Source: Escherichia coli (GTDB taxonomy: Bacteria > Pseudomonadota > Gammaproteobacteria > Enterobacterales > Enterobacteriaceae). Taken from it: a DNA stretch of 64,000 bases. The notes beneath the pieces are model-generated. The model ran no database searches. It saw only the letters and a program-made list of their open reading frames with translations, and had not been told where the DNA came from. The stretch is taken from the NCBI RefSeq assembly GCF_045037415.1, contig NZ_CP173438.1; one strand, 5' to 3'. Position numbers and translations under genes: made by a program. Positions 52,470 through 63,176 of the stretch are shown here, one piece after another (within the stretch, counting starts at the first letter, position 1; every line of letters starts with the position of its first letter).

Positions 52470-53663
52470 TCAAATCTGCCGTAACTGCGCCTCAACATAC
52501 AAATAGCCAATTCCCAGTACCTGTTGTGCGCGGCTTAATTGCCCAAAGCCAATCTGTGTCGCTTTCACGCTCGGTCCTTCGTCGCGGTCGAACGGGTTAA
52601 ATCCCGTCTGGCGAATAATGGTATTAAGCCAGTTCTCACCAAAGGCACAACTGCGACCGTACAACCAAATCTGATTAATATTGAGGATGTTGAGGAAGTT
52701 ATACAGACTCAAACCAATGGCGTTGGCACTGTGGTCAACCCAACTGGTGAACCACGGTTCTCCACTCTGCCAGGCAGCGATTAACTGCGCGGTAGTCAAT
52801 TTTTCAGGATTAAGCTGAGTATTAACCGGTTGTGATTTTAGCCATACCCGCGCCTGTTTTTTTAATGCGCTTAACGAGGCGACGGTTTCCAGGCAGCCAT
52901 AACGCCCGCAGTCGCAGACGACGCCATCCGGATTAACGATGGTGTGGCCAATCTGTCCACTGCCATACAAACTGCCGCGATAAATTTGCTCGTTAATCAC
53001 GAACGACGAGCCAATGCCGTAATCAACGTTGATTACGCAGAAATCACGCACTTGCGAATTATTTTGCCATTTCTCCGCCAGCGCCAGCATCACGCAGTCA
53101 TTATCGACCATTACCCGAATACCCAGCTTCTCTTCCAGCAGGTACTTCACCTCAATCGGTGTTGCCCACGGCGCTTGCGGCATGGTTTGCGACACGCCGG
53201 TCACCGGATCCACCTGACCGTGGATTGCCAGAGCCAGATTGATGGTGCGATCCGGCCACAATTTACGGTGGCGATGCCAGCATTTTTCGATTTCGGACAG
53301 CAGCGCCTGCGGCGTCGGTGCATCAATCTGTAAATACTCAAATTCGCCTTTCGGACTTAAACAGGCATTAGCGACCTGACACTCAATGCTGGTGGGCGTC
53401 ACGTTCAGACACAGCGTCCAGTCACCTTCCGGCGCAATCAGCCATGTACCGCTACTATGTCCGCGCGTTTGACTTTCATCGTCGATATTCACCACCCGTT
53501 TTTCGCTTTCCAGTTCCTGCAAAATATTACTGACCGCCGGAATCGAAATTTGCGCCAGCCGGGCCAGCGTTGATTTATTGGCGCGCTTTTGCCGGTACAG
53601 CAGTTCCAGAATCACGCATTTGTTATGGTGGCGAATCTGTTGATTGTTAATGCAGGCTCTCAT
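52470..53663 (-). CDS. yphH: ROK-family (NagC/Mlc-like) transcriptional regulator YphH
   Basis: Track ORF 52470..53669 (GTG start); the ATG at 53663 gives 397 aa; N-terminal HTH and ROK sugar-kinase-like fold with CxCGxxGC zinc motif. Confidence 0.88.
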   Translation of the reverse strand: MRACINNQQIRHHNKCVILELLYRQKRANKSTLARLAQISIPAVSNILQELESEKRVVNIDDESQTRGHSSGTWLIAPEGDWTLCLNVTPTSIECQVANACLSPKGEFEYLQIDAPTPQALLSEIEKCWHRHRKLWPDRTINLALAIHGQVDPVTGVSQTMPQAPWATPIEVKYLLEEKLGIRVMVDNDCVMLALAEKWQNNSQVRDFCVINVDYGIGSSFVINEQIYRGSLYGSGQIGHTIVNPDGVVCDCGRYGCLETVASLSALKKQARVWLKSQPVNTQLNPEKLTTAQLIAAWQSGEPWFTSWVDHSANAIGLSLYNFLNILNINQIWLYGRSCAFGENWLNTIIRQTGFNPFDRDEGPSVKATQIGFGQLSRAQQVLGIGYLYVEAQLRQI

Positions 53664-53780
53664 CTTCACTAAACCTTGTTTAGTTAATTGCGTGATTATT
53701 CCGCGAAAACATTGCCAGATTGTTCAATACACTGCCACAAATCTTTTAATTCAGTATGTCTTGTTAATATTGAGGGCACC

Positions 53781-56700
53781 ATGACTCCAGTAAAAGTGTG
53801 GCAAGAGCGCGTTGAGATCCCGACCTATGAAACCGGGCCGCAGGATATACATCCCATGTTCCTGGAAAATCGCGTTTATCAGGGATCGTCCGGCGCGGTT
53901 TATCCCTACGGCGTGACCGATACGCTGAGCGAGCAGAAAACCCTGAAATCCTGGCAGGCGGTGTGGCTGGAAAACGACTACATCAAAGTGATGATCCTGC
54001 CGGAACTGGGCGGTCGGGTGCATCGCGCGTGGGATAAAGTGAAACAGCGCGATTTTGTTTATCACAATGAAGTCATTAAACCGGCGCTGGTGGGACTGCT
54101 GGGGCCGTGGATCTCCGGCGGGATTGAGTTTAACTGGCCGCAACACCATCGCCCGACCACCTTTATGCCCGTTGATTTCACCCTCGAAGCCCATGACGAC
54201 GGCGCACAGACGGTGTGGGTCGGCGAAACGGAGTCGATGCACGGTTTACAGGTGATGACAGGTTTCACCCTGCGCCCTGACCGGGCGGCGCTGGAAATCG
54301 CCAGTCGCGTCTATAACGGCAACGCCACGCCGCGTCATTTCTTGTGGTGGGCCAACCCGGCAGTGAAAGGGGGGGAAGGGCATCAGAGCGTCTTCCCGCC
54401 GGATGTAACGGCGGTGTTTGATCACGGCAAACGGGCCGTCTCCGCTTTCCCCATCGCCACCGGCACTTACTACAAAGTGGACTACTCCGCCGGAGTGGAC
54501 ATTTCTCGCTATAAAAATGTGCCCGTTCCAACCTCATATATGGCTGAAAAATCACAGTACGATTTTGTTGGCGCGTGGTGTCACGATGAAGATGGTGGTT
54601 TGCTACACGTTGCCAACCACCATATTGCGCCAGGTAAAAAACAGTGGAGCTGGGGACACAGTGAATTTGGCCAGGCGTGGGATAAGAGCCTGACTGACAA
54701 TAACGGCCCGTATATCGAACTGATGACCGGTATTTTTGCCGATAACCAGCCTGATTTTACCTGGCTTGATGCTTACGAGGAGAAGCGTTTCGAGCAGTAT
54801 TTCCTGCCTTATCATTCTCTGGGCATGGTGCAAAATGCCTCCCGCGATGCGGTGATAAAACTCCAGCGTAGTGAGCGGGGGATTGAGTGGGGGCTGTATG
54901 CCATCTCTCCGTTGAACGGATACCGCCTGGCGATCCGCGAAATCGGCAAATGCAACGCGTTGCTCGATGATGCCGTGGCCCTGACACCAGCGACCGCCAT
55001 CCAGGGCGTGTTGCACGGTATCAATCCTGAAAGGCTGACCATTGAGCTCTCCGATGCCGACGGCAATATTGTACTGAGTTATCATGAACATCAGCCGCAA
55101 GCGTTGCCGTTGCCGGACGTCGCCAAAGCGCCACTGGCAGCACAAGACATTACCAGTACAGATGAAGCCTGGTTTATCGGTCAACATCTGGAGCAATATC
55201 ATCACGCCAGCCGTTCACCGTTCGATTACTACCTGCGCGGCGTGGCGCTGGATCCGCTGGATTATCGCTGTAATCTGGCGCTGGCAATGCTGGAATATAA
55301 CCGTGCAGATTTCCCGCAAGCGGTGGTATATGCCAGTCAGGCACTGAAACGCGCACATGCGCTGAACAAAAATCCGCAGTGCGGACAGGCGAGTTTGATT
55401 CGCGCCAGTGCTTACGAACGTCAGGGGCAATATCAACAAGCCGAAGAGGATTTCTGGCGTGCGGTCTGGAGCGGCAACAGTAAAGCGGGCGGCTATTATG
55501 GTCTGGCACGACTGGCGGCGCGTAATGGTAACTTCGACGCTGGTCTGGATTTTTGCCAACAAAGTCTTCGCGCCTGCCCAACCAATCAGGAAGTGCTTTG
55601 CCTGCATAACCTGCTACTGGTGTTAAGTGGTCGTCAGGACAACGCGCGTTTGCAGCGCGAGAAACTGCTGCGTGATTATCCGCTGAACGCCACTCTGTGG
55701 TGGCTGAACTGGTTCGATGGTCGTAGCGAATCAGCCCTCGCGCAGTGGCGAGGTCTTTGTCAGGGACGCGACGTTAACGCCCTGATGACCGCCGGGCAAC
55801 TGATTAACTGGGGCATGCCCGCCCTGGCGGCAGATATGCTGAACGCACTGGACTGTCAGCGCACGCTACCGCTTTACCTGCAAGCCAGTTTGCTACCAAA
55901 AGCTGAACGCGGAGAACTGGTCGCAAAAGCTATTGATGCCTTCCCGCAGTTTGTCCGTTTCCCGAATACGCTGGAAGAAGTGGCGGCGCTGGAGAGTATC
56001 GAAGAGTGCTGGTTTGCCCGGCATTTACTGGCCTGCTTCTACTACAACAAGCGTAGCTACGGCAAAGCCATTGCCTTATGGCAGCGTTGCGTAGAGATGT
56101 CGCCGGAGTTTGCCGACGGCTGGCGCGGGTTGGCGATCCATGCGTGGAATAAGCAGCACGATTATGAGCTGGCCGCGCGTTATCTTGATAATGCTTATCA
56201 GCTTGCGCCGCAGGATGCACGTCTGCTTTTCGAACGGGATTTGCTGGATAAGTTAAGCGGTGTCACACCGGAGAAACGACTGGCGCGTCTGGAAGATAAT
56301 CTGGAAATTGCGCTGAAACGCGACGACATGACCGCAGAACTGCTCAATTTGTGGCATCTCACGGGTCAGGCAGACAAAGCGGCGGACATTCTCGCCACGC
56401 GCAAATTCCACCCGTGGGAAGGTGGGGAAGGGAAGGTCACCAGCCAGTTTATCCTCAACCAGTTATTACGCGCCTGGCAGCATCTTGATGACAGAGAGCC
56501 GCAGCAGGCCAGCGAACTGCTTCATGCCGCGCTGCATTATCCGGAGAATTTAAGCGAAGGCCGTTTACCGGGGCAAACTGACAACGACATCTGGTTCTGG
56601 CAGGCAGTATGCGCCAACGCGCAGGGCGATGAAACTGAAGCGACGCGTTGTTTACGTCTGGCGGCGACCGGCGATCGCACCATTAACATCCACAGTTATT

Positions 56701-62716: not shown

Positions 62717-62746
62717 GCCGGATAAGGCGTTCACGCCACATCCGGC
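62717..62746. repeat. REP (repetitive extragenic palindrome) unit
   Basis: GCCGGATAAGGCGTTCACGCCACATCCGGC between convergent yphB and yphA. Confidence 0.85.
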
Positions 62747-62753
62747 ATCTTTC

Positions 62754-63176
62754 CTAACGGCGATCGAGAGAAATCGCCCCCGGCCCGGTAATTGCCAACA
62801 GCAGGAATGCGCCAGCGATACTGACATTCTTCCAGAAATTAATCATATTTGGCCCAACCGCATCGCCGGTCATATCCCAGTAATGGTGACCAATCACCGC
62901 CGTACCCAGCGTGTAGAAAATAAACAGCACCGCCAGCGGACGGGTGAAAAAGCCAAGCACGATTAATATCGCGGCGGGCACTTCCATAACTACCGCAATA
63001 ATCGCTGCCAGCATCGGCATTGGCGCGCCCAGCGAGGCCATATATTGGACCGTACCGTCAAAGCCCATCATTTTGGGAAAACCAAAAATAATGAAAATTA
63101 AGACCACGGCGATACGGGCAATTAATAATAAAACGGGGCGGGCAGTGCCAAAATCAAAATAACGTAGTGAGTTCAT
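62754..63176 (-). CDS. yphA: DoxX-family inner membrane protein YphA
   Basis: Track ORF 62754..63326; internal Met ([14 protein letters not shown]) gives 140 aa with 4 TM helices. Confidence 0.85.

Follow-up and report, generated by a model that had tools for sequence, protein, structure and literature searches.

Why does a sugar operon of Escherichia coli encode YphG, a protein of 1093 residues with a long tetratricopeptide repeat (TPR) part, and what does this protein do? YphG belongs to the yph locus, which occupies positions 52470-63176 of the window, i.e. of the whole stretch of 64,000 nucleotides of E. coli contig NZ_CP173438.1 (assembly GCF_045037415.1) analysed here. The yph genes are a part of the E. 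coli genome without an assigned function that is carried by nearly every strain. An initial annotation, made from the sequence of the window, had called them its least understood gene set. This assessment holds: none of the eight yph proteins reaches an NCBIfam equivalog cut-off, 120 close homologues of YphG are all named 'DUF5107 domain-containing' or 'TPR repeat protein', and in the literature we found no functional study of the yph genes or of DUF5107, which was met only as 'unknown function'. Published mentions concern yphG as a PCR marker of Klebsiella pneumoniae, compilations of transcription factors without a known role, and expression data where yphF and yphG follow other genes for sugar scavenging. 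Operons for regulated sugar utilisation are of an ordinary kind; the YphG family lies outside the known classes. The question thus shifts from a TPR protein in a sugar operon to the reaction of a widespread enzyme-like family.

In this study, we describe the spread, neighbourhood pattern and fold architecture of the YphG family together with candidate operators of the regulator YphH; these are new, while the locus itself was already catalogued. We propose that yph may be an uptake-and-conversion system, controlled by a ROK-family repressor, for a neutral, monosaccharide-sized sugar of the galactose type, with YphG as its key enzyme. We lean towards this general scheme with a confidence slightly below an even chance; for any specific yph reaction our confidence is much lower. 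The scheme agrees with the general prediction of the initial annotation, namely uptake and redox or epimerase chemistry on a sugar.

YphG had been described as a soluble TPR protein. This is right for its C-terminal part and misses the N-terminal third, a domain with the fold of aldose 1-epimerases. Pfam places DUF5107 at residues 39-324 (1e-55) and adds a few weak TPR matches. Structure prediction and a Foldseek search, both suggested by the initial annotation, revealed a domain of mutarotase-like fold on a TPR solenoid. The AlphaFold2 model, computed from an alignment of 83 full-length family members (27-58% identity), has a predicted local distance difference test score (pLDDT) of 95.6 and a predicted template-modelling score (pTM) of 0.93 over 1093 residues. 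It consists of a beta domain (residues 1-345, containing DUF5107), a small beta-sandwich (about 357-435) and a helical part (460-1092), the last comprising some 630 residues in about 35 helices and packed rigidly onto the beta domains. This helical part is a superhelix of tandem 34-residue helix-turn-helix units, as expected of TPRs. It resembles open TPR superhelices in Foldseek (OGT, Ski3, Ctr9, Naa15 and designed CTPRs) and is unlike closed (alpha/alpha)6 barrels upon structure comparison. The N-domain shows the galactose-mutarotase-like beta-sandwich fold, and its structural matches are stand-alone members of the aldose-1-epimerase family (3MWX 24.7, 3TY1 24.4, YphB/3NRE 20.8, L. lactis GalM 20.2). 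Its fold relatives comprise GalM, YphB, the Bacillus subtilis structures 3MWX/4BZE and the hexose-6-phosphate mutarotases YeaD/Ymr099c. Compared with these aldose 1-epimerases, YphG is three to four times larger, carries the fused solenoid and appears to have an Asn in place of the second catalytic His. The closest structure to YphG, on which 546 of its residues superpose, is the crystal structure 5CD6 of BDI_1685 from Parabacteroides distasonis, a structural-genomics entry named 'TPR-domain containing protein'.

At the sequence level the relation to mutarotases is remote. Pfam Aldose_epim does not match YphG, which has DUF5107 instead, and a direct profile comparison of YphG with YphB alone gave no match. 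Global profile-profile alignment of the N-domain with YphB/GalM-type sequences by hhalign reached 82% probability. Here E313 aligns with the catalytic Glu of the mutarotase 'LEP/LET-Q' motif, and H122/H123 come within two residues of the first catalytic His ('LHG'), in a remote alignment of uncertain local register. Conservation of at least 80% is found in 100 of the 345 N-domain columns as against 13-19 per TPR block of about 200 residues. Polar residues that never or hardly vary are E116, H122, H123, R124, N192, H215, K286, K287, D306, E313 and N322-Q323-P324-D325, and the solenoid contributes the conserved polar residues R782, E818 and E880. The initial annotation had reckoned with homology to a known glycoside hydrolase (GH) of assigned substrate. 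None was detected for YphG among sequences or in the PDB, and it showed no sequence or catalytic-domain fold similarity to characterised CAZy glycoside hydrolase or polysaccharide lyase families or to solved GHs. Fold and conserved residues suggest that YphG is an enzyme which arose from the mutarotase scaffold and differs from ordinary mutarotases.

A large TPR protein in a catabolic operon had seemed an anomaly. A search of 1.84 billion representative proteins showed the opposite, returning 1144 relatives at E<=1e-30. Most of the best 150 are about 1000-1170 residues long and align over nearly the whole query, and full-length relatives of about 1100 residues are spread over Proteobacteria, Bacteroidota, Firmicutes and Actinobacteria. 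Across these four phyla no other element of the cassette is as well conserved as the YphG-like protein, and YphG is the conserved core of this cassette type, not an oddity. The family includes members from gut Bacteroidota and Clostridia, usually beside galactosidases. A signal peptide is present in about 20 of the 83 aligned members and absent from E. coli YphG and its closer relatives. Three of four secreted members looked up belong to loci with SusC/D, GH16, sulfatases, a CBM9 gene or genes of a deoxy-sugar acid pathway. Some secreted relatives occur within polysaccharide-utilisation loci with GH16, sulfatases and SusC/D; one is near Aldose_epim, an enolase-superfamily dehydratase, an aldehyde dehydrogenase, a short-chain dehydrogenase/reductase (SDR) and RhaT, and in one locus the CBM9 gene adjoins the secreted relative. 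CBM9 is a binder of reducing ends. A CBM9-like domain, confirmed by Pfam, is also fused to the C-terminus of one distant YphG member. This is one of a pair of distant members with extra C-terminal domains (P0077 and P0137), the other domain resembling, by eye, the endonuclease/exonuclease/phosphatase type.

The comparison of genomic contexts, which the initial annotation had recommended for Enterobacteriaceae, was extended beyond that family and found YphG recurring with a regulator and a sugar transporter. We sampled 80 loci, one genome per species with up to 10 kb of flank, called and clustered the open reading frames (ORFs) and annotated representatives. The loci come from Enterobacterales, Aeromonas, Photobacterium, many Bacteroidota and many Firmicutes; an actinobacterial contig was inspected besides. 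Neighbours were counted within three genes of the YphG homologue in the 78 loci where a homologue was called. A regulator of AraC type, usually divergent, is present in 45 of them and a ROK regulator in 13, so that AraC or ROK regulators accompany YphG in 58/78 loci; partner regulators span the AraC, ROK, LacI and GntR families. The transporters are XylE-like sugar porters of the major facilitator superfamily (MFS; 39/78) and ribose-type ABC systems, counted by their ATPase (8/78). Among the hydrolases GH2 (31/78) and GH35 (9/78) stand out, with a GH2 of the BT4151 type, an exo-beta-1,4-galactosidase (1173 bits), in 28 loci. GH36, a GH97 retaining alpha-galactosidase (619 bits), GalM and SusC/D recur as well, as do sulfatases in marine flavobacteria. 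MelB (564 bits, above cut-off) with GH36 or GH2 stands beside yphH/yphG in Citrobacter sp. FP75 and in Photobacterium. Small mutarotases next to YphG are YphB-like in 10 loci, of family c27 in 4 and GalM in 6; since a canonical mutarotase is often encoded beside YphG, the two would not be redundant. The constant module is a regulator, a monosaccharide-type transporter and YphG, often with a small mutarotase and frequently among galactosidases.

The transporters of these cassettes are of familiar kinds. Three Enterobacterales (L004, L005, L007) have the ABC system and the MFS gene in one operon, which mirrors the established ABC/MFS transporter pairs AraFGH/AraE, XylFGH/XylE and MglBAC/GalP. 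A ribose-type ABC system adjoins YphG in Clostridia (L015, L026, L061, L076), and the actinobacterial contig has AraC, a ribose-type binding protein and YphG together. Orthologues of YphF/E/D and YphC (79-100% identical) are confined to a subset of Enterobacterales; Budvicia aquatica, Citrobacter, Hafnia and Enterobacter sp. Ag1 have the arrangement yphH / yphG-MFS-yphB instead. The MFS gene of these related operons is absent from the E. coli cluster. Close to yph, four loci (L004, L010, L013, L014) have a further, separate ribose-type ABC operon that includes genes for an FGGY-family kinase and a SIS-domain protein. The E. coli window lacks this operon, which is probably an island of its own next to the cluster.

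As AraC or ROK regulators are the most constant neighbours, YphG might lack catalytic activity and serve as a sugar sensor or adaptor: the mutarotase-like domain would bind the sugar, and the solenoid would pass on induction by binding YphH or the transporter. Contacts between proteins are the usual task of TPR solenoids, as the Foldseek matches OGT, Ski3, Ctr9 and Naa15 recall, and Mlc, a paralogue of YphH, is controlled by protein sequestration. We nevertheless consider such a role very unlikely. In the model the solenoid sits rigidly against the beta domains and is no free arm, and conservation is concentrated in the pocket-bearing N-domain with its Glu and His residues of catalytic type. 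A purely regulatory adaptor is moreover disfavoured because many members are exported and because the partner regulators come from four unrelated families. Relatives that are secreted or linked to CBM9 would thus argue for an enzyme rather than a regulatory scaffold.

What would such an enzyme act on? The YphG-adjacent transporter classes are those of E. coli for arabinose, xylose and galactose, which would point to a neutral, monosaccharide-sized substrate. Galactose-type stereochemistry is suggested because alpha- and beta-galactosidases, MelB and GalM recur, and recognition of the reducing end because of the fold, the conserved Glu/His residues and the CBM9 link. The GH2/GH35 neighbours lack a signal peptide in Firmicutes and Photobacterium and have one in Bacteroidota, so that YphG would act at or after the stage at which small sugars are produced. 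From this we infer the substrate class, the reaction of each enzyme, the order of the steps and the repression as follows. Free aldoses resembling D-galactose or L-arabinose, or a very small galactoside, would be imported by YphF/E/D. YphG would be the defining enzyme and not a scaffold. Its N-terminal pocket would bind the reducing (hemiacetal) end and perform cofactor-independent acid/base chemistry with Glu313 as the base, opening the ring and then changing ring form or configuration, or cleaving at C1. The TPR solenoid would serve as a rigid structural brace supplying R782, E818 and E880. YphB, as a canonical mutarotase, would equilibrate the anomers, and YphC would oxidise a secondary hydroxyl with NAD+, thereby linking the product to existing pathways. 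Repression by YphH would act through the 23-bp palindrome that adjoins the yphH start and probably also through related sites before yphG and yphF.

Several points weigh against this proposal. No characterised homologue backs a specific yph reaction or substrate. In the remote alignment the near-invariant N192-P193 of YphG falls on the 'H-P' of 'HPYF'. YphG would not be a standard mutarotase because N192 occupies the position of the second catalytic His, for which H215 might substitute. Many of the conserved residues are basic (H122, H123, R124, K286, K287), which could indicate an anionic ligand or a metal and would not agree well with a neutral sugar. That some relatives are secreted is easier to understand for an enzyme that cleaves glycans than for one that converts monosaccharides. 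The galactosidase neighbours are absent from E. coli itself, and the link to them could reflect a different specificity of subfamilies at about 40% identity. YphC is only about 30% identical to any characterised dehydrogenase. Genes for medium-chain dehydrogenases/reductases (MDRs) beside YphG in Firmicutes were considered as specific support for YphC and set aside, as they are only about 29% identical to it, a likeness at the family level.

Going one step further, DUF5107/YphG could form a new class of its own among carbohydrate-active enzymes that need no cofactor. Catalysis would take place in a modified mutarotase pocket (Glu313, His122/123, Asn192, His215) that loops of the TPR solenoid complete. 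The enzyme would act on reducing-end residues of the galactose type, either as a converter of ring form or configuration or as a reducing-end-specific cleaver. This idea is tentative, and we hold it to be somewhat unlikely. Cellobiose 2-epimerase and similar enzymes, which occur in glycan loci with a permease, use cofactor-free His/Glu acid-base chemistry starting from ring opening at the reducing end. The analogy is functional only, since their fold, an (alpha/alpha)6 barrel, is unrelated to YphG and there is no known sequence or structural similarity. If the new-class reading is true, yph would give E. coli and its relatives a nutrient absent from the list of known carbon sources. With YphG solved, thousands of genes in glycan-utilisation loci of gut, soil and sea would gain an annotation, and a new catalytic use of the mutarotase fold and an unrecognised carbon source of Enterobacteriaceae would possibly come to light.

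The company of yph in other bacteria invites comparison with classical sugar cassettes. With melR-melAB, lacI-lacZYA, araC with araE/araFGH and galETKM with galP/mglBAC, yph shares the divergent regulator, the transporter classes and a key enzyme with a mutarotase, and galactosidase genes are frequent neighbours of YphG loci too. It differs in a key enzyme outside the characterised families, in a ROK regulator in E. coli and in the lack of a kinase or isomerase. The minimal cassette of regulator, transporter and YphG, at times with a mutarotase, would therefore be complete only if its products are common sugars, as in the melR-melAB and lacI-lacZY cassettes. From this follows the main rival explanation, which we rate as unlikely: YphG as an exo-glycosidase or phosphorylase of a new family on a small galactoside or disaccharide, with YphB handling the anomer of the released sugar and YphC the aglycone, for example a polyol. 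YphG stands tightly beside GH2, GH35, GH36, GH97, SusC/D and MelB, secreted relatives are found in polysaccharide-utilisation loci between GH16 and sulfatase genes, and the CBM9 link agrees with it. The signal-peptide-free GH2/GH35 of Firmicutes and Photobacterium would mean that oligosaccharides are processed in the cytoplasm alongside YphG. Such a glycosidase would best explain the absence of kinase and isomerase as well as the secreted relatives; it would fit poorly with the transporters of cytoplasmic YphG, which are overwhelmingly sugar-porter MFS or ribose-type ABC systems and not the oligosaccharide types CUT1/GPH. Furthermore, no known glycosidase uses a mutarotase pocket as catalytic site, and YphG has no sequence similarity to any solved GH.

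The dehydrogenase YphC opens another possibility. It has the catalytic Zn ligands C51 and G80-H81-E82, the structural set C111/C114/C117/C125, the motif G193-LGPVG and D217, which suggests a preference for NAD+. It matches Tdh at 171 bits (cut-off 380) and IolM at 169 bits (cut-off 450) and belongs to none of the NCBIfam subfamilies of known substrate tested (Tdh, IolM, GatD, IdnD etc.). PDB matches are alcohol dehydrogenase, xylitol dehydrogenase and threonine dehydrogenases at about 1e-33 to 1e-37. Between E. coli and Budvicia diplopodorum (L007) YphC is 90% identical, compared with 79% for YphF, 66% for YphG, 58% for YphH and 57% for YphB, pointing either to unusually strong constraint or to more recent exchange. 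The yphC orthologues of two other genera (L005, L007) encode 353 residues, starting from the MKTMLAAY methionine that corresponds to M12 (60761); the first 11 codons of yphC as annotated may not be translated.

With YphC as the best-conserved protein of the enterobacterial cluster, the pathway could be oxidative. An aldose would be turned into lactone and aldonate that enter orphan aldonate routes (dgo, lgo, rhm, yag/yjh), or a polyol would be oxidised by YphC, and YphG would be a ring-form-specific helper, i.e. a mutarotase or a lactone-opening enzyme. Some neighbourhoods agree with this. In Enterocloster (L023) the genes that come after YphG encode a cupin-like protein, an SDR similar to sugar 1-dehydrogenases (glucose 1-dehydrogenase 191 bits, L-rhamnose 1-dehydrogenase 171 bits), a sugar-acid dehydratase of the IlvD family and an aldolase-like protein of the RraA family. 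In Ruminococcaceae (L060, L067) two putative dehydrogenase genes and a gene of the tagaturonate reductase family (567 bits, above cut-off) follow YphG; one of the two putative dehydrogenases is an MDR, and the second (c52, 401 residues) had no family or PDB match. The secreted relative near Aldose_epim, dehydratase, aldehyde dehydrogenase, SDR and RhaT can be added here. Yet most cassettes consist of AraC, MFS and YphG without a dehydrogenase, YphC is nearer to polyol and secondary-alcohol dehydrogenases than to known sugar 1-dehydrogenases, and the Firmicutes MDR genes share only about 29% identity with it. No known lactonase has a mutarotase-like fold. We regard an oxidative pathway as distinctly improbable.

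By architecture YphF/E/D form a predicted ABC importer of the ribose/arabinose type (CUT2), and the NCBIfam equivalogs assign it to no transporter of known substrate. The best NCBIfam matches of YphF, which has the signal peptide MPKKMTRTRNLLLMATLLGSALFARA, are the AlsB, MglB, LsrB, rhizopine and RbsB binding proteins at 53-64 bits, all far below cut-off (AlsB 63.5 bits against 335); its best PDB match is 5HSG (2e-24). YphE matches AraG (455 bits, cut-off 689), XylG (435), AlsA (424) and MglA (414) over its full length, and YphD matches RbsC (226 bits) and AraH (221 bits), all again below the cut-offs. YphB is assigned to the aldose-1-epimerase family by Pfam (Aldose_epim PF01263, 1.1e-51), by its fold and by the canonical catalytic residues H83 (LHG), H148 (HPYF) and E253 (LEP), and it is identical to PDB 3NRE over 288 aligned residues (3.5e-202).

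Is the locus of use to E. coli at all? A cryptic or decaying remnant without a current physiological role would agree with the lack of a known growth substrate and with the missing MFS gene of related operons. In some E. coli the 12-kb region carries insertions, namely the IS3-like element IS1397 in two records (H2, H3) and about 0.8 kb in a third (H1). In one genome (L002) yphG is split into ORFs of 841 and 244 residues, and truncated YphG sequences of E. coli make up large clusters (P0157, P0183). Some lineages at least can dispense with the locus. Against decay, 5368 of 5426 complete E. coli genomes contain 80% or more of the region at 95-100% identity, always on the chromosome, and positions 52000-64000 of the window are 100% identical to several complete E. 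coli chromosomes. All yph reading frames are intact in the window, and conservation between genera is strong for YphC, YphF and the regulatory motifs. The YphF protein has been detected, and it is 3-4.6-fold up on levoglucosan as compared to fructose (PMC8753852). A remnant is accordingly the explanation to which we give the least credence.

The map of the locus was drawn from the ORF list of the window and the RefSeq annotation of an identical E. coli record (Table 1). Both confirm the coordinates and the size of YphG given by the initial annotation, and its family assignments all hold, including the divergent ROK regulator. The plus-strand cluster, counted there as five genes, has six, yphG-F-E-D-C-B, and yphA, which lies within the same coordinates, had gone unmentioned. 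The locus is flanked by glyA on the yphH side and hcaT after yphA. An alternative ORF of 1124 residues for yphG, starting at TTG 53688, runs through the conserved operator/promoter region. The orthologues align only from ATG 53781, which is preceded by a GAGGG ribosome-binding site. Because protein-level conservation begins there, the longer ORF is very probably over-extended and the 1093-residue start the credible one. The gaps measure 117 bp between yphH and yphG and 96, 22, 2, 32 and 11 bp along the plus strand from yphG to yphB. The last four of these would place the genes downstream from yphF in one operon, and co-transcription of all six plus-strand genes is plausible.

Table 1. Genes and candidate regulatory elements of the yph locus (window positions)
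Feature	Position	Strand	Description	Source
yphH	52470-53663	minus	ROK-family transcription regulator, 397 aa	ORF list, RefSeq annotation
Candidate YphH operator O1	53665-53687		23-bp palindrome TTCACTAAACcttGTTTAGTTAA, abuts yphH start codon	
Invariant block	53687-53695		ATTGCGTGA, candidate activator half-site or promoter element	
Possible yphG promoter -10 hexamer	53728-53733	plus	TACACT	inferred from conservation
Second motif copy	53750-53768		TTCAGTATGTCTTGTTAAT, degenerate, just before yphG ribosome-binding site	
yphG	53781-57062	plus	1093 aa, cytoplasmic	ORF list, RefSeq annotation
Third motif copy	57055-57078		TTCACTAAACCctaTTAACTGTAA, overlaps yphG stop codon, upstream of yphF	
GC-rich hairpin	57083-57105	plus	TGAGCGGCA-cgtgc-TGCCGCTCA, between yphG and yphF	
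yphF	57159-58142	plus	periplasmic sugar-binding protein with signal peptide	
yphE	58165-59694	plus	tandem-domain ABC ATPase, 509 aa	
yphD	59697-60695	plus	ABC permease, 332 aa	
yphC	60728-61822	plus	NAD-type zinc MDR dehydrogenase, 364 aa as annotated	
yphB	61834-62706	plus	aldose 1-epimerase-family protein, 290 aa	
REP-like palindrome	62716-62747		GCCGGATAAGGCGTTCACGCCACATCCGGC, between convergent yphB and yphA	
yphA	62754-63176	minus	DoxX-family inner-membrane protein, 140 aa	RefSeq annotation

Control of the locus is expected to lie with YphH, which matches Pfam ROK PF00480 (1.1e-32, residues 115-337) and, at residues 16-54, winged helices of MarR/HTH_24 type, and which carries the Zn motif GHTIVNPDGVVCDCGRYGCLE (CxCGxxGC type). 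Architecture (winged helix-turn-helix plus ROK) and Zn motif are those of NagC and Mlc, the equivalogs of which YphH does not reach (110.1 bits against a cut-off of 650 and 109.5 against 530, respectively). YphH was reported as the third, uncharacterised ROK repressor of E. coli on a separate branch, with a deviating linker motif, RG instead of GR (PMC4288165). The candidate operator O1 (inverted repeat I6) is kept in 11 Enterobacterales with YphG 54-96% identical to that of E. coli. Its 23 bp cover the same -11..+11 span as NagC/Mlc operators, and multiple sites about 80 bp apart are a further likeness; TT/AA at positions ±5,6 of those operators is not kept. The second copy of the motif forms direct repeats D1/D2 with O1, spaced 85 and 80 bp, and is partly conserved across species. 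The third is recognisable in 5/6 ABC-type loci. The exact 11-mer TTCACTAAACC occurs only twice in the window, at 53665 and 57055-57065. With one mismatch it has 3 matches against 0.76 expected by chance, and for the 22-nt pattern 0 matches are expected, though the pattern was derived from these same sites. From these motifs we infer autoregulation by YphH and its control of yphG.

Within the yphH-yphG intergenic region GCGTGA is invariant in 11/11 aligned sequences, and A2, A4 and T6 of TACACT are invariant in the 11-species alignment. Scans for sigma-70 promoters and terminators gave no signal above shuffled controls, and a consensus promoter scan found nothing in this region. A CRP site was considered there and dropped, as the match to the full site is poor by inspection and only one half-site (CGTGA) is convincing. 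Between yphG and yphF the stem sequence of the hairpin is kept in most of six aligned Enterobacterales. The hairpin has no clear T-run and no Rfam match (no RNA family was matched in 52000-64000), and its outer arms ATTTGAGCG/CGCTCAAAT offer an alternative pairing; it may be an attenuator, a stabiliser of an RNA 3'-end or a protein site. The conserved operator-like motif and the hairpin together suggest a second control point for yphFEDCB at this place.

At the far end of the cluster, yphA is downstream of yphB in E. coli and beside yphH, on the other side, in three Enterobacterales loci (L005, L006, L014). That it stays by the cluster though the side changes hints at a functional tie, and its link to the pathway is uncertain. 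The palindrome between yphB and yphA is one that we take to be a repetitive extragenic palindromic (REP) element.

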